From Patescibacteria group bacterium (GTDB lineage: Bacteria > Patescibacteriota > Minisyncoccia > UBA6257 > UBA9933): DNA of 60,058 nucleotides. The notes under the pieces were generated by a model that saw only the letters and a list, made by a program, of their open reading frames with translations, was not told where the DNA came from and did no database searches. Positions 20,203 to 54,754 of the stretch are shown piece after piece; the first letter of the stretch is position 1; each line of letters opens with the position of its first letter. The position numbers and the translations under genes were made by a program. The stretch is taken from the NCBI GenBank assembly GCA_038062875.1, contig JBBTWF010000007.1, positions 1 to 60,058 on the forward strand, written 5' to 3'.

Positions 20203-20388
20203 ATGTCCATTAAGGAAAAATACTATCTCCTTAGATACCATACTCAAGAATGGACAAAGGAATATAAAAAAGATATTTTTCTTTTTCTTTTAATTTTTTT
20301 AATCAGCTCTTTAAGCTTTGGTTTGGGCTATTTAGTCAACCGTGAATTCAACCATAGTCCGATTATGATTGAAAAGTGCGCCGATTAA
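20203..20388 (+). CDS. Small single-pass membrane protein
   Basis: One transmembrane helix; follows ftsX. Confidence 0.6.
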   Translation: MSIKEKYYLLRYHTQEWTKEYKKDIFLFLLIFLISSLSFGLGYLVNREFNHSPIMIEKCAD

Positions 20389-21158
20389 AGATACCCCACC
20401 TGTTTTAACCAGTAGTCGTTTTCCCATTCCCAAAGTTTTTTCGCGCCCAAAAACGCCTTAAAATCCTCTTGCCAGTAAGGGAATTCCTGCAATTCAACTT
20501 CTCCTTTAAGAGCAGACCATTCATGTTCGCAATTTTTCGCGCCGTTTGGATAGCCGTTTTTTTTCCACGGCAATTTCACTTTTTTCCGACCGCCTTTTTC
20601 ACGAAGAATGGAACCGCATTTAATGCAAGTTTTATTTTGGTCGATTCTTAAAATCCAGCGCGTTTGAAGATTATCAAAATCCTTTTGAAGCGCCCCCATA
20701 TAAGCCGATGTTTGAAGATTATAATCCCGATAAATCGCCTGCGAGGTTTTAATATCCAAAACCCCGAATTTGCCGTCAATTAGAGCCAATGCGTCTAATG
20801 TGCCGGCATAACGTTCATCGTGGTTAACAACTTGTTTTTCAATACATTCCGAATCAACTTGAATATTTTTTTCATTAATAAAATTTAAAAAAGCGTTAAA
20901 CGCAGGCATAATTTTTTCTTCGACTTGCGGTATTTCGCCCCTAAATACTTTTTCAACCGCTTCATGGATAGCGGTGCCTTCGCTGGCTGATTGTTTTTTA
21001 ACAGCTTCGCCTTCGGCAAAATTACTCATTTCCGCGTAGAAATAATAAAGAGCCGGCTTGGATTTAATATCAACTATTTTAGTTACTCGCGGGAACCAAA
21101 CGCCGTCAATTTCATATCCGGACATTTCTTTGAAGCGGTCAAGGTTGGAGTAAAACAT
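20385..21158 (-). CDS. PD-(D/E)XK nuclease family protein
   Basis: PRVTKI, GTAIHE, YAGTLD...LDIKTS, LQTSAY. Confidence 0.8.
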   Translation of the reverse strand: MFYSNLDRFKEMSGYEIDGVWFPRVTKIVDIKSKPALYYFYAEMSNFAEGEAVKKQSASEGTAIHEAVEKVFRGEIPQVEEKIMPAFNAFLNFINEKNIQVDSECIEKQVVNHDERYAGTLDALALIDGKFGVLDIKTSQAIYRDYNLQTSAYMGALQKDFDNLQTRWILRIDQNKTCIKCGSILREKGGRKKVKLPWKKNGYPNGAKNCEHEWSALKGEVELQEFPYWQEDFKAFLGAKKLWEWENDYWLKQVGYL

Positions 21159-24635: not shown

Positions 24636-24805
24636 GTAGAAAATCTTTTCTCGTTCGTAGGCCTCCAATCGTCAAAATTCAAGCTCGCTCCTAACGAAAA
24701 TTTGCCACCCTGGTCGCTTCGCTCCCGTGTCCCCGGCAAATTTTCTACTCGCTCGCGAATTTTAAGACGCTCTCCGGCAATACTCTCTACGAAAAGATTT
24801 TCTAC
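24636..24805. mobile_element. MITE-like palindromic element, copy 1
   Basis: Perfect 15-bp terminal inverted repeat GTAGAAAATCTTTTC; reverse complement aligns with the copies at 30492 and 54552. Confidence 0.75.
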
Positions 24806-26491: not shown

Positions 26492-27598
26492 TTAAGTATA
26501 CTTAGATATATTAACAATAACTCCACTCATCGTCAAAAAAATCGCCAAAGCGGTGCCGCCATAACTGATAAACGGCAAAGGCACGCCGGTTAAAGGAGTT
26601 AATCCGGAAATCGCCGCTATATGAACAAAAATCTGAATGGCAATTACCGAAGTCAGTCCGACCGCGGTTAATTTCGCGAATTGGTCTTGAGAATTTTTGG
26701 CGATAAAAAATCCTCTTACTAAAAGTGTGGCAAAAGCGACAATAAGCGCCACAGCTCCGACAAAACCTAATTCTTCGGCGATTACCGCGAAAATTGAATC
26801 TCCTATCGGCTCCGGAAGATGTTTAAATTTCGTGGTTGATTGTCCGAGACCGACTCCCCAAAACCCTCCTGAACCGATAGCCATCAACGCTTGATTGCGA
26901 TGAAATCCTTCAACTTGGACATCGGCATTTTCCGGATTAAAAAAATTCATAACTCGTTTATAACGGTAAGAATCAGTGGAAGTAAAAATAAGCGCTGTTA
27001 AAACCAAAACCCCCAAGAGTATCGTTCCGACGATAAAAGAAAGCCGAGCGCCGCTGATAAAATAAATTAGCAAAGCGGAAGCCAGCACTATCAAAACGGT
27101 AGTGGTTGCCGGCTGTTTAAATACTAAAAAAGCAACAGCGCCACAAATAATTAAAAAAGGCAACAATCCTCCCAAAAAACTTGTCTGGCGATTATTTTTT
27201 TTATTGCTTAACCAAGCCGCCAAATAAATAATAAAAGTGAATTTTAAAAATTCAGCCGGTTGAAAAGAAAAAAATCCTAGATCAAGCCAACGAGCCGCGT
27301 TGCTGTGCGAGAAACCAAGCGGAGTAAAAACCAAAATTAAAGCGACAATATTTAAAATTAAAAGCAATAGAGCGATTCGTTCGAATTTTCGGTAATAAAA
27401 ATAACTAGTGATTAAAAAACCTATAATGCCGAAACTCAAGCCATAAATCAATTGATGTTTAAGATAATAAAAAGTGTCGTTAAATTTTTGCTTTCCCAAA
27501 TCCGAAGATGCGCTGGAAAGCATCACCAAACCGAAAACCGTCAATAAAATGACGCAAAGAATAAAAATATAATCCGGACTATGACCTCTTATTTTCAT
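26492..27598 (-). CDS. ftsW: SEDS peptidoglycan polymerase
   Basis: FQPAEFLK, LPEPIGDSIFAVIAEELG, PLTGVPLPFISYGG; adjacent to murG. Confidence 0.9.
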   Translation of the reverse strand: MKIRGHSPDYIFILCVILLTVFGLVMLSSASSDLGKQKFNDTFYYLKHQLIYGLSFGIIGFLITSYFYYRKFERIALLLLILNIVALILVFTPLGFSHSNAARWLDLGFFSFQPAEFLKFTFIIYLAAWLSNKKNNRQTSFLGGLLPFLIICGAVAFLVFKQPATTTVLIVLASALLIYFISGARLSFIVGTILLGVLVLTALIFTSTDSYRYKRVMNFFNPENADVQVEGFHRNQALMAIGSGGFWGVGLGQSTTKFKHLPEPIGDSIFAVIAEELGFVGAVALIVAFATLLVRGFFIAKNSQDQFAKLTAVGLTSVIAIQIFVHIAAISGLTPLTGVPLPFISYGGTALAIFLTMSGVIVNISKYT

Positions 27599-29055
27599 TT
27601 TTTCCTTAATATTTTCCCAGCCAATACATTTTGGAATTCTCCATCCTTGACAACAATTTTTCCGTTCAAAATCACGTTTCTTATTTCAGCGTCCCTGAAA
27701 ACAACCAAATCGGCGAAATTTCCGTCCTTAATCGTCCCTCTATCCTCTAAACCAAGTCGTTGAGCCGGCAAACCGGTAATTTTATATATTGCTTTTTCAA
27801 TCGGAAAAATTTTTTCTTTTTCGGAAAGTTTTAAAAATTTAGAAAAAGCGGTAGAACGTCCCGCGCTATTTGAAGCAATTATCGCCCGTTTATGGAACAA
27901 TGCCTTTTTAACTATTTTAATATCAATATTGCCGTAAAAAACAACTGCTTGAAAATTAGTAATTTCCATCAGGGTTAAAAGGCCGTTTTTGACATCCAAA
28001 TTCCTATTGGCGGAAAACTCTTCCAATGATTTTCCCTCTAAATATTCATTTCCGGGCGCTGAAGTAATGATAATTTTTCTCCCGTTCAACTTTGGCAATT
28101 CTTTTAAAATTTTTTCCCTGATATTCGGGGTCTGAAAATTTTTCAACATAATTTTTTTATCGCTGTTTTGAATCCAAGAAGGTAACAGGATGACAACAGG
28201 GACATCGCTGGAATCAGAAGGAGAAACATCAAAACAAATATCCGCTTTGGCGATATTTTTATTAATTAATTCCAAAGACGTCTCATAGTCATTTTGAAAA
28301 CCGTTAATCGGCCTAAAATGGCTTACTAAAGTTCTTACGCCAGTTTCTTTGGCAATCTTAATTGTTTCATTAATGGAATCCAAAAGCCCTTCTCTTTCAT
28401 TCCGAAGATGGGTGGCGTAAAGACACTTAAATTTAGACACTGTTTCGACTAATAATTTAATTTCTCCGTAAGGAACTTGTTGGGATTGGGAATATCCCAA
28501 ACCGGTTGAAAAACCAAAAGCTCCCTCTTTTAAAGACCGCGCCAATAAAAATTTAAAAACAGCTATTTCGTTTCTGGTAAGTTTTCTGAAAGCGTTGCCG
28601 ATTAAACTCTGGCGAATAGTGTAATGTCCGACTAAAGTGCCGAAATTCACTCCTAAAGGTCTTTGCTCCATTGTTTTTAAGAATTCCGCTATGGTTTGCC
28701 AGTTTATATTAGTTCTGTCAGGAGAAGCCCATGGTCGGATTGATTCTAAAGAACCGTAAAGCAAGGGCGCCAGCGAAGCGCCGCAATGACCGCCGATAAT
28801 AGTGGTAACGCCCTGAAGTAAAAAATCTTTCTGGGAAGGATTGGAAAAAAGAGTTAAATAATGGTCGGAATCGGTATTGATATCGATAAAACCTGGCGAC
28901 AAATAAGCTCCCATTCCATCTATTATCTCATCGGCTTTATATTTCGGAAAACTGCCGATGGCGTAAATCTTTTCTTTTTTAACCAAAACATCAGCCTTAA
29001 CCGCGGGCCTTCCGGTACCATCAAGAAGCTGGATGTTTTTGATTAAGATGGTCAT
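27595..29055 (-). CDS. N-acyl-D-amino-acid deacylase-like amidohydrolase
   Basis: PGFIDIN, QGVTT..GHCGAS, GFSTGLGY, THLRNE, ADLVVF; HxH metal motif degenerate. Confidence 0.8.
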   Translation of the reverse strand: MTILIKNIQLLDGTGRPAVKADVLVKKEKIYAIGSFPKYKADEIIDGMGAYLSPGFIDINTDSDHYLTLFSNPSQKDFLLQGVTTIIGGHCGASLAPLLYGSLESIRPWASPDRTNINWQTIAEFLKTMEQRPLGVNFGTLVGHYTIRQSLIGNAFRKLTRNEIAVFKFLLARSLKEGAFGFSTGLGYSQSQQVPYGEIKLLVETVSKFKCLYATHLRNEREGLLDSINETIKIAKETGVRTLVSHFRPINGFQNDYETSLELINKNIAKADICFDVSPSDSSDVPVVILLPSWIQNSDKKIMLKNFQTPNIREKILKELPKLNGRKIIITSAPGNEYLEGKSLEEFSANRNLDVKNGLLTLMEITNFQAVVFYGNIDIKIVKKALFHKRAIIASNSAGRSTAFSKFLKLSEKEKIFPIEKAIYKITGLPAQRLGLEDRGTIKDGNFADLVVFRDAEIRNVILNGKIVVKDGEFQNVLAGKILRKK

Positions 29056-29094
29056 GCCGTAATTATAACAAAAATTACAAAAATAAAAAATAAA

Positions 29095-29140
29095 AAAAGC
29101 GGGAGACAAGTTGATAATTAAACCTATGTCGCTCCCGCTT
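29095..29140 (-). terminator. Intrinsic terminator of the RT gene
   Basis: AAAGCGGGAG...CTCCCGCTTT with a T-run on the minus strand. Confidence 0.65.
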
Positions 29141-30039
29141 TAATAAATCACGAATGGGCAATCTTTTACGTCTTTTGTTTTTAAGTAGTGAAGCAACGGC
29201 CTCAATAATTGGTTTGGAATTTTTCTCTCTATCCCGATCACAAAAGCAATGATTCCGAATACCTGCGTTTTTGAAACCGAACCGTCAATAGTCGCTCTAC
29301 CTATCATCCCTCTGAATCTTTTAATCATTTTTGGCGGCACTTTTGGTTTTCCGCCAATAATGTTAACACCAGTTACCCGAAGCGCCCTATTTTTTATTGA
29401 ATAACGGCGCGTCTTTTTGGGATTGATGGAAAATCCATATTCCTTCAAGAGGACAACTACTTCCTTTTTAAGATTTTTCGGTATGCGCCTTTTAGAGGTA
29501 AAAACCAAATCATCAACATATCGGGTATATTTTATTCCCCTGATTCTTGAAGCGGCCTTATCAATTCCTGTATTGCTTAAAAGGAAATTAAATAAAGCCA
29601 GAGAAGTTGGAGCGCCTTGAGGCAAATGTCCGCGAAAAGTAGTTAATTTTGTTATTATCCTTGCTTCTTCCGCCGGTGCTCCAAATTTCCTGAAAAGAAC
29701 ATATACTTGTTTTTTAGTGGATGAAGGATAGGCGTCTTTTATATCCATGCGGAGCAAATATTTGCCATTTTTATGCTCTAAGGCGTTTGTTCTGATTGAC
29801 CTTCCTATTATTCCTCCTTGAACGCATTTCGGGAATTTAAGATTAAACTTATCTAATATTACTCTTTGTACTGTTTTTAAATCCTCTAACGGCTCCTCAA
29901 CGCAACGTTTTTTACCGCCGCTATTTTTTCTGTACCAAACTTTATAAAGATTAGCCCTCCTTTTAACTAAATCGGAAAAGAGGGTTGGATCAATGCCTAA
30001 TCTATTGGCAAGATCATCAATTGTTTTTTGACTATACAT
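29140..30039 (-). CDS. Retron-type reverse transcriptase (stand-alone)
   Basis: LKTVQR, NALEH (retron region X NAxxH), MDIKDAYPS, LPQGAPTS, YTRYVDDL, RVTG (region Y VTG). Confidence 0.9.
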   Translation of the reverse strand: MYSQKTIDDLANRLGIDPTLFSDLVKRRANLYKVWYRKNSGGKKRCVEEPLEDLKTVQRVILDKFNLKFPKCVQGGIIGRSIRTNALEHKNGKYLLRMDIKDAYPSSTKKQVYVLFRKFGAPAEEARIITKLTTFRGHLPQGAPTSLALFNFLLSNTGIDKAASRIRGIKYTRYVDDLVFTSKRRIPKNLKKEVVVLLKEYGFSINPKKTRRYSIKNRALRVTGVNIIGGKPKVPPKMIKRFRGMIGRATIDGSVSKTQVFGIIAFVIGIERKIPNQLLRPLLHYLKTKDVKDCPFVIY

Positions 30040-30078
30040 AATCCCCCCCCTTCTTTTTTAATTGTTGTCATATTAAAA

Positions 30079-30333
30079 TGTCCTGACAGGCTTTCAAGAG
30101 ACAGTTAAAAATAACTGCTCGTAAAAAAAGATTCGAGAAAATAAATTCATTTTGGCCTTGGTAGCGGAGTTTACGATGCGAGAAAGGACAAAATGAATTT
30201 TAATTTCGCAAAGCGAGTTGTACGTGCCTGCGAATTGACACTCAAATCTCAACCCCGCCAGTTACTGGCAAGGCAATAATCTGAAACCTACGCACTCTTC
30301 CTTCAGATTATATAGATTAAGCCTGTCAGGACA
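30079..30333 (-). ncRNA. Putative retron-like msr-msd ncRNA
   Basis: Perfect 15-bp IR TGTCCTGACAGGCTT (30079-30093 / 30319-30333) enclosing about six hairpins, between the promoter and the RT start. Confidence 0.75.
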
Positions 30334-30383
30334 ATATTATTTTTAAAGACCAAACATCTTATTTCCTTAAAATAAGATATTTA

Positions 30384-30413
30384 AATATAACATATTTTCT
30401 TATAATTTGTCAA
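30384..30413 (-). promoter_or_regulatory. sigma70 promoter for the ncRNA-RT transcript
   Basis: Minus-strand TTGACA (30408-30413) and TGnTATATT (-10 at 30384-30389). Confidence 0.6.
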
Positions 30414-30427
30414 TCATAATATGCCAA

Positions 30428-30689
30428 GCGGAAAATCTTTCCGCAGTGAGTAAAAATACGAATAAATCTTTTCGCAGCCAGCATGTTTAATCAACAAAGG
30501 AAAAATCTTTTCGCAGTGAGTATTGCGGAGCCGAATAGAAAATCTCTGAGCGAATAGAGAAAATACAGGGTACCCGCGTAGCAGGGTGGTATTTTCTCGT
30601 TATGAGCGAAGTTTGATTTTCATTCGGCGGAGCACCTACGAACGAGAAAAGATTTTTCCTTTGTTGGCTGGCGAGAAAAGATTTTCCGC
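30428..30689. mobile_element. Nested MITE-like palindromic element, copy 2
   Basis: Outer IR GCGGAAAATCTTT/AAAGATTTTCCGC; inner perfect 21-bp IR at 30492-30512 / 30646-30666; shares GTGAGTATTGC and CCTACGAACGAG with the other copies. Confidence 0.75.
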
Positions 30690-30695
30690 AAAACA

Positions 30696-31739
30696 TTACA
30701 AAAACTTGCTCAAAAAGAACAATATTAATCCCAAGCCGGCGGAAACGGCCGAAATAATCCAAAATCTCATTGTGACTTTTGTTTCCGGCCAGCCCAAGGC
30801 CTCAAAATGATGATGAATGGGAGTGGAAAGAAAAATTTTTCTTTTAAAAAGTTTTTTACTGGTAAGCTGGATAATAACCGAAAGCGATTCAACCACCGGA
30901 ATAATCATAAAAAATGGCAGAAACAAAGCGGTGTTAGTAAGCATCGCCGTTACTCCAAGCGTAATTCCCAAAGCCATTGAACCGGTATCCCCCATAAAAA
31001 AACGGGCTGGATAAACATTGAACCATAAAAAAGCTAACAGCGCGCCGATAACAACTCCATTGAAAACCGCTAAATCATATCTTCCCAAAAAGAAAGCCAC
31101 TGCCATTAAAGCCGCGAAAGCGAAAAGCGAAACACCGCCCAGCAAACCATCCAAACCGTCTGTTTCATTGGCTGAAAAAGCGCTGGCAATAATAACAAAC
31201 ATAAAAATAAAGAAATACCAGCCGTGAATTTCAATGTTGCCGAAAAATGGAATGTAAAATACGCTCCAGTCCAATATAAAGTAAAACCACCAAGCGCCAA
31301 GAGTAGCAATAATAGTATAAATAATTAATTTATGCCGCACTTTCAACCCTCCGCCATTGGGACCTATTTTCAAAACCCCGAATAAATCATCAGCCAGTCC
31401 CACTATGGCGGCAATCAGCATAGCCGCTATGGGCAAATAAGTTTGAGCTCGGTCGGTAAAATTAAAATAATCCCAGACGCCGTCAAAAAAAGAACTTAAA
31501 ACAAAAAACAGAAAAGCCAAACCAAGCACCGTCAGCCAGATGATGATTCCACCCATTGTCGGAGTACCGGCTTTGGCCTGATGAAGTTTAGAAAAAATCG
31601 GCGCTTGCTCGCTGACGCGAATTTGTTTACCTAACTGATATTTTGACAAAAATCTGACCAAAAAAGGAGTAAACGACAAAGCTATTAAAAAAGATAAACC
31701 GCTTAATATTAAAATGCGAACTGCTTGTAAAATTAACAT
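30696..31739 (-). CDS. mraY: Phospho-N-acetylmuramoyl-pentapeptide transferase
   Basis: KAGTPTMGG, NETDGLDGL, FMGDTGS, PIHHHFE. Confidence 0.95.
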   Translation of the reverse strand: MLILQAVRILILSGLSFLIALSFTPFLVRFLSKYQLGKQIRVSEQAPIFSKLHQAKAGTPTMGGIIIWLTVLGLAFLFFVLSSFFDGVWDYFNFTDRAQTYLPIAAMLIAAIVGLADDLFGVLKIGPNGGGLKVRHKLIIYTIIATLGAWWFYFILDWSVFYIPFFGNIEIHGWYFFIFMFVIIASAFSANETDGLDGLLGGVSLFAFAALMAVAFFLGRYDLAVFNGVVIGALLAFLWFNVYPARFFMGDTGSMALGITLGVTAMLTNTALFLPFFMIIPVVESLSVIIQLTSKKLFKRKIFLSTPIHHHFEALGWPETKVTMRFWIISAVSAGLGLILFFLSKFL

Positions 31740-31745
31740 TGTTTT

Positions 31746-32735
31746 TTATTTTATTAATTCCAATAATTTTTCCGTGTCGCCGAACCTATCCTTACTGCCA
31801 AGCACGGTTATTAAAATAAGCCGTCCTTGTTTATTGAAAAGCGACATTAAATTCTCGTCAGCCGCTTCGGTGTATCCCGTCTTTCCGCCGATAAAATCCG
31901 ATTGGCCGGCGAATTGATTGATATTAATTAATTTTCTTTTTACTCCGCTGTTCAACTCCGATATAACCGCTTCTTTTTGCCGAGTAATTTCAAAAATTTG
32001 CGGATGATTATAATAAATATAATTCATTAATTTCGCTAAATCATTAACCGTTGACTGATTAAGAAAAGAAAGTCCAGTCGGGTCGTCAAAATTTGTCTCG
32101 GTCATATTCAATTCAACTGCTTTTTGGTTCATTAATTTAACAAATTCAGGACTTATTGATTCAGCCAAAGCAACTGCCGCGTCATTGCTGGAAACAACCA
32201 ACATCGCGTTGATTAAATCCTCGGCTGTAAAAATTTCTCCGGAAGCGAATCCGCCGGCTAAACCGTTTGTTTTAAATTTGAAAGTGTCTTTATCTATTAT
32301 TATTTGTCTGTTTAACTCGCTTTTCTCAACAACTATTACGGCAGTCATCAATTTAGTCAAAGAAGCGATTGGCCAGCGCTTATTTATATTTAACTCAAAA
32401 AAATTCAAATTGCTGTCTAAATATTTTGCCGAAGCAATATGAGAATGAATAACTGGCTGAGAAGTATTTATTGATGGAATATCTTCATCTTGATTATAAT
32501 CTCCTTCTTGCTGTTGCGTTCCGGATTCTTTTTGAACAGCTGGCTTAATAGATTCGGGAACTGATTCTTGCTCTTGGTTAATCCCCTGATTAATTTCTGA
32601 ATTGGCGACAACAGCGCTGATATTCGCATAAAAATTTCCGGTTTGCGCCATTTCAACTTTTTGGTCGGATATCCTGAATATTAAAACGGAAATTAAAATT
32701 ACCAGAATTAAAATTAAAGATTGAAATTTAATCAT
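31746..32735 (-). CDS. D-alanyl-D-alanine carboxypeptidase (peptidase S11)
   Basis: ASLTK (SxxK), SSN, KTG. Confidence 0.9.
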   Translation of the reverse strand: MIKFQSLILILVILISVLIFRISDQKVEMAQTGNFYANISAVVANSEINQGINQEQESVPESIKPAVQKESGTQQQEGDYNQDEDIPSINTSQPVIHSHIASAKYLDSNLNFFELNINKRWPIASLTKLMTAVIVVEKSELNRQIIIDKDTFKFKTNGLAGGFASGEIFTAEDLINAMLVVSSNDAAVALAESISPEFVKLMNQKAVELNMTETNFDDPTGLSFLNQSTVNDLAKLMNYIYYNHPQIFEITRQKEAVISELNSGVKRKLININQFAGQSDFIGGKTGYTEAADENLMSLFNKQGRLILITVLGSKDRFGDTEKLLELIK

Positions 32736-53656: not shown

Positions 53657-54555
53657 AATATATTTTTTTTGGAACACCAGAATTCTCCACAATTATTTTA
53701 GAAAAATTGATCAACGCCGGCTTTATCCCCGAGGCGGTTGTTTGTAATCCCGATAAACCGGTTGGGAGAAAAAAGATTATTACTCCGCCAGCAATAAAAC
53801 TTCTGGCGCAAAAATATAATATTCTTGTCCTCCAGCCCGAAAAATTAGAAATTGGAAATTGGAAATTAGAAATTAATAAACTTGGCGGCGCAGATTTCGC
53901 AATTGTCGCGGCATACAGTAAAATAATTCCTAAAACTATTCTGGATTCTCTGCCCGCCAAGTTTATTGGGGTCCACCCTTCGCTTTTGCCGAAATACCGC
54001 GGTCCCTCCCCTATTCAAACGGCGATTTTGAACGGAGACGAAGAAACCGGCGTTAGTTTATATTTGATGGATGAAAAAGTTGACCACGGAGCGATTTTGG
54101 CAAATCGCAAATCGCAAATCGCAAATCGTGATACTTACGAATCGCTTCATAATAAACTGGCGGAATTAGGGGCGGATTTGTTGATTGATTTCTTACGAAA
54201 AATTAAACAAATTAACAATCAACAATTAGCAATTAGCAATCTTGCTGTGCCTCAAAACGAATCGCAAACCACTTATACGAAGAAATTCAAAACCCAAAAC
54301 GCTTTTATTGAGCCGCAAGATTTGGAAAAAGCCCAAAATGGTTCGGCTTCGCTCACCACAAGTGGTTCGGCAGGTTCATCACAAGTCGCGGCGGAAATTG
54401 ACCGTAAAATCCGCGCTTTAAATCCCGAACCCGGAGTATGGACTATTAAAAACAATAAACGGATAAAACTTTTAGAAGCGAAAATTACGAGTGAAAAACT
54501 TGAGTTATTAACAATTCAACCCGAAGGAAAAAAACCAACGAAATGGGTCAAGTAA
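53653..54555 (+). CDS. fmt: Methionyl-tRNA formyltransferase
   Basis: FFGTPEF, HPSLLPKYRGPSPIQ, IRALNP.PG. Confidence 0.95.
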   Translation: MKYIFFGTPEFSTIILEKLINAGFIPEAVVCNPDKPVGRKKIITPPAIKLLAQKYNILVLQPEKLEIGNWKLEINKLGGADFAIVAAYSKIIPKTILDSLPAKFIGVHPSLLPKYRGPSPIQTAILNGDEETGVSLYLMDEKVDHGAILANRKSQIANRDTYESLHNKLAELGADLLIDFLRKIKQINNQQLAISNLAVPQNESQTTYTKKFKTQNAFIEPQDLEKAQNGSASLTTSGSAGSSQVAAEIDRKIRALNPEPGVWTIKNNKRIKLLEAKITSEKLELLTIQPEGKKPTKWVK

Positions 54556-54754
54556 AAAATCTTTTCGCAGTGAGTATTGCCGGAGAACGTCTTAAAATTC
54601 GCGAGCGAGTAGGAAAAATGCGGGGTACCCGCGTAGCAGGGTCGCATTTTTACGTTATGAGCGAGCCGCCACTCAATTTTATTGAGCGAGCCTCGCCCCT
54701 TCGGGGCGGGAATTTTGACGCTCGGAGGCCTACGAACGAGGAAAGATTTTTTAC
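54552..54754. mobile_element. MITE-like palindromic element, copy 3
   Basis: IR GTAAAAAATCTTT/AAAGATTTTTTAC; interior similar to copy 1. Confidence 0.75.

Follow-up and report, generated by a model that had tools for sequence, protein, structure and literature searches.

A retron-type cassette with no adjacent effector gene

Does a retron-type reverse transcriptase (RT) that is accompanied by a structured non-coding RNA (ncRNA) and by no effector represent a retron that works with two parts, or one whose third part has been lost, hidden or displaced? The question was raised by a locus on a 60,058-nt stretch of DNA from a Patescibacteria group bacterium (GCA_038062875.1, contig JBBTWF010000007.1; hereafter the window), in which positions 29085–30413 of the minus strand form a self-contained unit of ~1.35 kb that consists of promoter, leader, 255-nt RNA, Shine-Dalgarno sequence (SD), RT gene and terminator. 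We conclude that this cassette is probably a genuine orphan (two-part) retron that belongs to a distinct, rare RT lineage in Patescibacteria. An original prediction made from the sequence of the window had listed a promoter, a boxA-like motif, a 255-nt region closed by a 15-bp inverted repeat, an SD, a 299-aa RT and a terminator, lying between an amidohydrolase gene and mraY, and each of these parts was recovered in its place. It had also interpreted the locus as a retron-type RT paired with a structured RNA of its own, lacking both an effector gene and a fused domain, a description that was found to apply to the whole RT family and not to this locus alone. The main parts of the cassette are the following:

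30384..30413, minus strand: sigma-70-type promoter, TTGACA-18-TATATT, TG-extended, 11 of 12 consensus matches
30339..30348, minus strand: boxA-like 10-mer CTTTAAAAAT, 15 nt 5′ of the a1 arm of the RNA
30079..30333, minus strand: msr-msd-type ncRNA, 255 nt, bounded by arms a1 and a2; 40 consensus pairs over 12 distinct sequences, with pairing in 93.9% of cells
29140..30039, minus strand: retron-type RT, 299 aa, G-rich SD before the start; motifs and matches in Pfam, PADLOC, NCBIfam and PDB
29085..29141, minus strand: intrinsic terminator, 18 pairs in two stacked helices followed by a U-run, −19.5 kcal/mol

A distinct lineage of retron reverse transcriptases

The RT carries the motifs of retron RTs, namely RTNALEH (NAxxH), YVDD and RVTGVN (VTG); residues H89, T223, G224, V175 and D176 do not vary among the 24 RTs of its family, and A86 and D177 are present in at least 90% of them. 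It matched RVT_1 in Pfam (7.5e-18) and 85 RT models of PADLOC at E≤1, and among the best 25 of these 85 all were models of retron RTs, led by RT_VI (1.3e-53, 180 bits), RT_II-A (8.9e-51) and RT_III-A (1.8e-47). When the PDB was searched with a profile of the family, the 12 best matches were all retron RTs, with the Ec86 RT first (1.1e-35). The alignment to Ec86 RT placed profile positions 8–294 on chain positions 22–308, which is nearly full length and identifies the protein as a complete retron RT without an extra domain. A single family RT (P0024) reads FVDN at the catalytic motif in the alignment, and may be an inactive copy or reflect a sequencing error.

A search of 5.8 billion proteins returned 251 matches, of which the first 24 clusters (query included) were 44–100% identical to the window RT at E≤8e-75 and were followed by a gap, the next match being 36% identical (E = 1.6e-33). 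These 24 clusters define the family as used here. The original prediction had proposed placing the RT in a phylogeny; the family formed a clade of its own (SH-aLRT 98) when 86 RTs, namely the 24 family members and 62 of the nearest matches labelled by PADLOC scores, were placed in a quick maximum-likelihood tree. The clade joined three unlabelled RTs (P0026, P0027 and P0031; SH-aLRT 97), and the next branch out comprised five RT_VI-labelled RTs together with three unlabelled ones (P0034, P0053 and P0056). For the 24 members RT_VI (best 6.8e-58) and RT_II-A (best 1.9e-57) gave similar scores, and genuine type VI RTs reached 210–255 bits on RT_VI alone, as opposed to the 180 bits of the window RT. 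We therefore regard the family as a separate lineage close to types VI and II-A.

The family lacks an adjacent effector

Clustering of the open reading frames (ORFs) called around the RT revealed no neighbour gene shared across 18 loci, and the 299-aa RT has no additional domain; neither form of the third component of a tripartite retron, an associated effector gene or a fused domain, was thus found. Since this holds across the whole RT family, the absence of an effector is not a one-off loss in the genome of the window. Among six family neighbours scanned with PADLOC, five had no match, the exception being a locus-specific NYN protein in L093. The same scan found the nucleoside deoxyribosyltransferase-like (NDT) effector NDT_II-A (L011, L106 and L015) or HTH_VI (L103) beside the nearest non-family RTs, which served as positive controls. 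The L093 protein (198 aa, 2202–2798; match to the PADLOC candidate system HEC-09, 1e-10) is encoded ~290 nt upstream of the retron RNA and was seen in L093 only. Several other neighbours were considered as effectors and rejected: the PD-(D/E)XK nuclease gene beside the RT in G009, a relative from the same taxonomic family, is part of the core gene set, with copies in 37 of 41 relatives; the amidohydrolase-like gene beside the window RT is a resident gene of the cell-division/cell-wall (dcw) cluster; and the HAD-like gene that neighbours the RT in both L009 and L093 drew no PADLOC match and is not on the same side of the RT in the two loci.

The cassette could nonetheless belong to a normal three-part retron whose effector is unlinked and would either lie at another genomic locus or be a core protein of the host acting in trans. 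Such an arrangement has been put forward as a possibility for orphan retrons (Mestre et al. 2020, PMC7736814), and the genome of the window is 82.5% complete. We looked for effectors genome-wide in two families, NDT_II-A and HTH_VI. The former was found in neither of the two carrier genomes searched (the window's own, G000, and G009), and the latter matched only generic XRE-type helix-turn-helix (HTH) proteins on other contigs, which were discarded as effector candidates, the model also matching 13 of 14 control genomes. As the nuclease gene next to the RT in G009 is also a core gene, we consider an unlinked effector possible but unlikely. One of the XRE-type genes (L201, on contig C43 of G009; HTH_VI 2.2e-16) is located by a 214-aa gene and a gene with a DPPY motif that we read as a DNA methyltransferase, and looks like a restriction-modification control protein with no link to the retron.

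A decaying remnant, non-functional since the loss of its effector, would be in keeping with the rare and patchy distribution of the family (see below), with the RT of L092, which is split into ORFs of 72 aa and 234 aa, and with the loci of the L009 type that have no ncRNA. We judge this very improbable, however, because the RT is intact in 13 of the 14 loci with a whole ORF, the ratio of non-synonymous to synonymous substitution rates (dN/dS) is 0.06–0.17 in the 18 computable pairs among the 25 most similar pairs listed, indicating purifying selection, four helices of the RNA have been kept paired by compensatory changes, and promoter and terminator are conserved. The retention under purifying selection of a self-promoted, self-terminated version of ~1.35 kb, in genomes of ~0.5 Mb that have shed most dispensable genes, argues for a function that the RT and its RNA carry out by themselves.

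A covarying RNA built on the retron plan

The 381 nt upstream of the RT gene fold at −116.8 kcal/mol (z = −7.1), a value that none of 100 shuffled sequences matched. The elements of the RNA, from its 5′ to its 3′ end, are:

30319..30333, minus strand: a1 arm, TGTCCTGACAGGCTT, with inner end GGCTT; forms a perfect 15-bp inverted repeat with a2
30276..30311, minus strand: SL1, msr hairpin 1, variable; 8 pairs, 7 changed on both sides
30252..30274, minus strand: SL2, msr hairpin 2, conserved CUGCCAG-UAU-CUGGCGG; 7 pairs, 4 invariant and 2 compensatory
30095..30250, minus strand: presumed reverse-transcribed region with SL3, SL4 and a 3′ hairpin within the closing stem, its extent estimated from folds
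30143..30200, minus strand: SL4, long hairpin in the presumed msd template, 17-nt arms 94% complementary; 10 pairs, 9 changed on both sides
30079..30093, minus strand: a2 arm, AAGCCTGTCAGGACA, with inner end AAGCC; 39 nt 5′ of the RT ATG

A covariance model of homologous upstream regions had been suggested as a check, and by means of exact-repeat search, alignment and such a model (R1, built from the 5′ 84 positions of the RNA alignment) the RNA was located at the same place in 13 of the 16 loci with upstream DNA. R1 had no match outside the family loci in 308 kb of loci (those of distant RTs included) or elsewhere in the window's genome. Rfam gave no match in 28000–32000 at E≤1, and its only matches at the gathering score within 10 family loci were two ordinary tRNAs.

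RNAalifold placed the consensus pairs in four helices. The proportion of paired cells compares with 79.7% in shuffled alignments, none of 500 of which reached the observed value, and 27 of the 40 pairs have changed on both sides, against 14.6 in shuffles and 7–9 when partners were slid by 1–3 columns; the covariation score was 0.50, against 0.09–0.18 in the slid versions. In the a1/a2 stem 9 of 15 pairs have changed on both sides, the arms varying yet remaining complementary, and at its inner end (GGCTT/AAGCC) the innermost four pairs are invariant and the fifth departs in L096 alone. The individual folds of every sequence agree on an a1/a2 stem, six unpaired bases, SL1, SL2, one or two variable hairpins, SL4 and a 3′ hairpin. 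SL2, with its conserved sequence, is likely to be the hairpin recognised by the RT.

The original prediction had described an atypical RNA of about six short hairpins. Four of these (30276–30311, 30257–30269, 30205–30234 and 30143–30200) correspond to SL1, the core of SL2, SL3 and SL4 of the minimum free energy fold, and the two at the 3′ end were reproduced only roughly. The term atypical was weakened: the RNA has the paired a1/a2 ends, two short msr hairpins and the template hairpin of a retron ncRNA, with the template branched into two to three hairpins, and the retrons described by Mestre et al. (2020, PMC7736814) have 1–3 msr hairpins and a single or double msd hairpin. Set against that description it follows the canonical plan with a slightly more branched template, and is only mildly unusual.

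No ncRNA was found in L009, L091 or L092 within 4.8 kb upstream or 6 kb downstream of the RT, and in L009 a search with filters off gave a best match of 12.4 bits (E = 0.17). These three loci are near-identical, with a membrane-protein gene directly upstream of an RT (4852–5790 in L009, 5956–6891 in L092) that is 50–51% identical to the query.

RNAs bounded by inverted repeats are also known from type VI retrons, whose hybrid RNAs (hyRNAs) carry the coding sequence of a small protein (SP) within the repeats (Zhang et al. 2025, preprint, 10.1101/2025.10.22.683967). The RNA of the window could by analogy conceal the coding sequence of a small toxin, made available for translation by cDNA synthesis, and RT_VI is both the best PADLOC model for the window RT and the one with the best E-value over the 24 members; a 52-codon ORF with a TTG start is present in the window at 30094–30252. 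Across the 12 RNAs, however, no ORF is kept in frame, start or peptide, and indels occur within the hairpins; this lack of a conserved ORF rules out a small-toxin hybrid RNA of the type VI style as far as the alignment can tell. There is also no adjacent HTH gene, the RNA measures 255 nt compared with ~470 nt for a type VI hyRNA, and the RT falls below the RT_VI scores of genuine type VI enzymes, so that we hold this explanation to be extremely improbable.

Stand-alone RTs with a structured ncRNA and no effector gene are found in DRT2 as well, where rolling-circle synthesis of cDNA yields an endless Neo-type ORF and the RT in this sense writes the effector. In the present family every reading frame is interrupted by a stop in at least one of the 12 template regions and the template length is a multiple of 3 in only 6 of 12, which together rule out an output of the Neo type. 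The window RT moreover matched Drt2 at 32.5 bits, against a cut-off of 390, and we find a DRT2-like system scarcely credible here.

The candidate priming position

The original prediction had remarked on the A that follows the 5′ arm, and this base is indeed an A in the window. In the predicted fold it faces the base next to a2:

30318, minus strand: candidate branch or priming base, A in the window; A in 4 of 12 sequences, G in 8
30094..30095, minus strand: base facing the candidate branch (A30094) and invariant G (G30095), the proposed first template base; GA followed by AAGCC in 4 sequences, GG followed by AAGCC in 8

The A-bearing sequences are those of the window, L008, L088 and L089, which constitute one RT subclade; the sister subclade has G. 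The facing base changes in step with the branch base, giving A..A in the one and G..G in the other. As the switch amounts to a single evolutionary event, this agreement is suggestive only. In Ec86, reverse transcription skips the G opposite the branch G and takes the base after it as the first template position. The a1-G...G-a2 geometry of the G subclade appears to match this arrangement, and in the window's subclade both of the facing purines would be replaced by A.

The retrons described by Simon et al. (2019, PMC6868368) prime from a G, and the inner end of the msr arm holds or just precedes this G, usually as TAGC. The motif around the candidate priming base of the present family is CUU(G/A)A, as opposed to the usual (U/C)AGC. 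A GG, invariant but for L096 (which reads GAGC), is located inside a1, 4–5 nt upstream of the candidate branch, in an RGGCUU context. Priming in the window's subclade may use the adenosine, the GG 4–5 bases back in the arm or another mode. Going by its description, Retron-Sen1 (Se72) is comparable, in that its msr was described as having no apparent priming guanosine (Simon et al. 2019, PMC6868368); the present family differs in that its sister subclade does carry a G at the position. The natural A/G polymorphism with its co-varying facing base offers a ready-made test of how retron RTs choose their primer, a choice that bears on the engineering of retron ncRNAs for genome editing.

Transcription signals and genomic site

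A promoter scan yielded 5 sites against 5.4 in shuffles and hence no excess overall. In all 12 family loci, however, a TTGAC[AT] hexamer lies 53–93 nt 5′ of a1, with a −10-like hexamer ~17 nt further on by eye, so that the transcript should open with a leader of tens of bases. Within this leader the 10-mer listed above, which we take to resemble the boxA consensus, recurs as the pattern C[CT]TT[AG]A[AC]AAT 11–21 nt 5′ of a1 in 9 of 12 loci, the copies in L008, L089 and L093 being degenerate; the leader sequence flanking it could not be aligned across the family loci. A narrower form (CTTT[AG]A[AC]AAT) has 32 copies in the AT-rich 434-kb genome, so a single copy is uninformative and the weight of the motif lies only in its fixed position across the family. 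It may act in antitermination across the hairpin-rich RNA.

For comparison with boxA we used the 16S leaders of relatives, the window's own genome being without an assembled 16S gene, and by eye the 10-mer resembles a YTTGAMAAYT element in 5 of 9 rRNA leaders. A motif around TTTTTAGTTGTCCCAAT, with 1–2 mismatches, was likewise seen by eye ~20–190 nt 5′ of 16S in 7 of the 9 leaders (L192–L200), with no clear copy in those of L198 and L199.

At the other end of the cassette a simple terminator scan made no call at the 3′ end of the RT gene, where folding revealed the terminator. A GC-rich hairpin followed by a T-run was read in the sequence 3′ of the RT in 12 of 13 aligned loci, L008 being unclear.

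The cassette is flanked by mraY (30696–31739) upstream and by an amidohydrolase-family gene, ftsW and murG downstream, all in a neighbourhood of cell-division and cell-wall genes. In five relatives without the RT (G003, G004, G010, G011 and G015) mraY directly adjoins the amidohydrolase-like gene, from which it follows that the window bears an insertion of ~1.64 kb. The retron cassette is accordingly an accessory insertion in the dcw cluster and not a core gene. The insertion and the repeat that accompanies the cassette in it are located as follows:

29056..30695, minus strand: ~1.64-kb insertion of palindromic repeat and retron cassette between mraY and the amidohydrolase-like gene; the site is empty in five relatives
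Window 24640–24801 and 54555–54664, and G000 C1:67204–67365 and C8:16029–16187: further copies of the ~155-nt palindromic core

The repeat is a giant hairpin of 286 nt at 30415–30700, between mraY and the retron promoter (−107.6 kcal/mol, z = −10.8). Its ~155-nt core has four more copies with 72–83% identity in the 434-kb genome, and looks like a dispersed family similar to miniature inverted-repeat transposable elements or repetitive extragenic palindromes (MITE/REP-like). The amidohydrolase-family ORF (27595–29109) probably starts at ATG 29055 and not at TTG 29109, since alignments of its homologs open at residue 19. This gene occupies the slot expected for murD in the dcw cluster and is present in 21 of 26 relatives searched.

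Host and distribution

The source genome comprises 434 kb in 15 contigs, of which the window is contig 7, and its relatives measure 0.5–1.3 Mb; the sequencing runs that contain DNA of the window are labelled groundwater metagenome. Named records of the RT family are from Patescibacteria, including Candidatus Saccharibacteria and Candidatus Portnoybacteria. Of 24 further genomes from the taxonomic family of the window's host, only G009 contains a member, which is 67% identical and situated at a different site, and none was found in 400 other genomes sampled across the phylum. The family is represented by 3 loci among 185,579 species genomes and by 14 in a metagenome collection, and is thus rare and patchily distributed. 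IMG/VR contained no member, and hence no sign of carriage by phage, the best match there being 37% identical.

Relation to described retrons and proposed mode of action

The category of orphan retrons has been described by Mestre et al. (2020, PMC7736814), whose examples are the Retron-Eco5 (Ec107) branch of RT clade 2 and branches of clade 11; as presented there, these likewise consist of an (msr-msd)-RT cassette without a specifically associated protein. The window RT is of another lineage than Ec107, scoring 122 bits on RT_Ec107-like against 180 on RT_VI, and the present family differs from the orphan branches in being hosted by Patescibacteria and in having an ncRNA that forms a family of its own, with no Rfam match and R1 matches in family loci only. 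Likeness to type VI (Retron-Vpa2; Retron-Sen3) extends to the best-scoring RT model, the neighbouring branch in the tree and the RNA bounded by inverted repeats, but the family has neither an adjacent Cro/C1-type HTH gene nor a small-protein ORF, and its RNA is about half as long, which sets it apart from that type. Similarly, type II-A (St85/Sen2; Ec86/Eco1, RT structure 7v9x) provides the second-best RT model, the best solved relative and a priming geometry like that of the G subclade, but the window RT reached 158 bits on the NCBIfam model retron_St85_RT, under its cut-off of 235, and no NDT-like effector was found by the RT or in G000 and G009.

A full-text literature search retrieved nothing relevant on retrons in Patescibacteria or the Candidate Phyla Radiation and, on retrons without effectors, Mestre et al. 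(2020) only; a 2026 survey of retrons in metagenomes makes no mention of these phyla in its main text. New here are the RT lineage with its RNA, the absence of an effector throughout a family carried by minimal genomes, the alternation of A and G at the branch base and the boxA-like leader. The role of orphan retrons has been in question since 2020, and the cassette makes a compact construct for testing their function.

On our reading of the locus as an orphan retron, its promoter would give rise to a single transcript of a ~45-nt leader, the 255-nt msr-msd RNA and the RT mRNA, in the order in which these parts are laid out in the DNA. The boxA-like motif in the leader may recruit Nus factors, allowing the polymerase to read through the hairpins into the RT gene. 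The RNA folds into the covarying 15-bp a1/a2 stem, the variable SL1, the sequence-conserved SL2 and the branched template, and the RT would recognise SL2 together with the inner stem GGCUU/AAGCC. It would then prime from the 2′-OH at the inner end of a1, from A30318 here and from G in the sister subclade, or alternatively from the GG inside the arm, and copy ~150 nt into a branched multicopy single-stranded DNA (msDNA). With no effector in cis, the RT-msDNA complex could itself be the active agent, for example as a decoy or sensor of phage proteins, or could work via an unlinked host protein. That all of this holds at once, with a retron lineage of ultra-small bacteria that functions without any effector protein, a G-to-A switch of branch base in one subclade, a facing base that follows in step and a reliance on antitermination of the boxA type for transcription across the template RNA, we regard as unlikely.

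Several observations weigh against the interpretation as an orphan retron. The synthesis of cDNA from the ncRNA is a prediction from sequence; the canonical priming position is A and not G in the window's subclade; and the RTs of L009, L091 and L092 are under purifying selection without a detectable ncRNA, so a strict dependence of the RT on the RNA may be doubted. The incompleteness of the genome leaves room for an unlinked effector. With regard to method, the RT tree drew on the nearest matches of the query and is not a balanced reference phylogeny, and as the 12 RNA sequences are related the shuffles inflate the significance of the covariation, the slid controls being fairer.

Other features of the family loci

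In L008 the neighbours of the RT are an exonuclease-like gene, an ORF of 60 aa for a membrane protein and a convergent PD-(D/E)XK gene, which is 72% identical to window 20385–21158. A Mur-ligase-like gene is convergent with the RT in L010, L094–L097, L099 and L101, and FemAB-, RuvA- and UvrB-like genes were also recognised, by reading of the sequence only, in L010, L095, L096 and L099.

Seven loci of the sister subclades also have a tRNA-like gene convergent with the RT, with a T-arm, acceptor ends and a CUCAUAA anticodon loop:

L010 6934–7245: tRNA-like gene
L094 1468–1725: tRNA-like gene
L095 1406–1720: tRNA-like gene
L096 6934–7230: tRNA-like gene
L097 2347–2695: tRNA-like gene
L099 6931–7155: tRNA-like gene
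L101 693–900: tRNA-like gene

ARAGORN at default settings and Rfam did not call the gene, and ARAGORN with introns allowed gave inconsistent results. An insertion of 60–100 nt precedes the T-arm.

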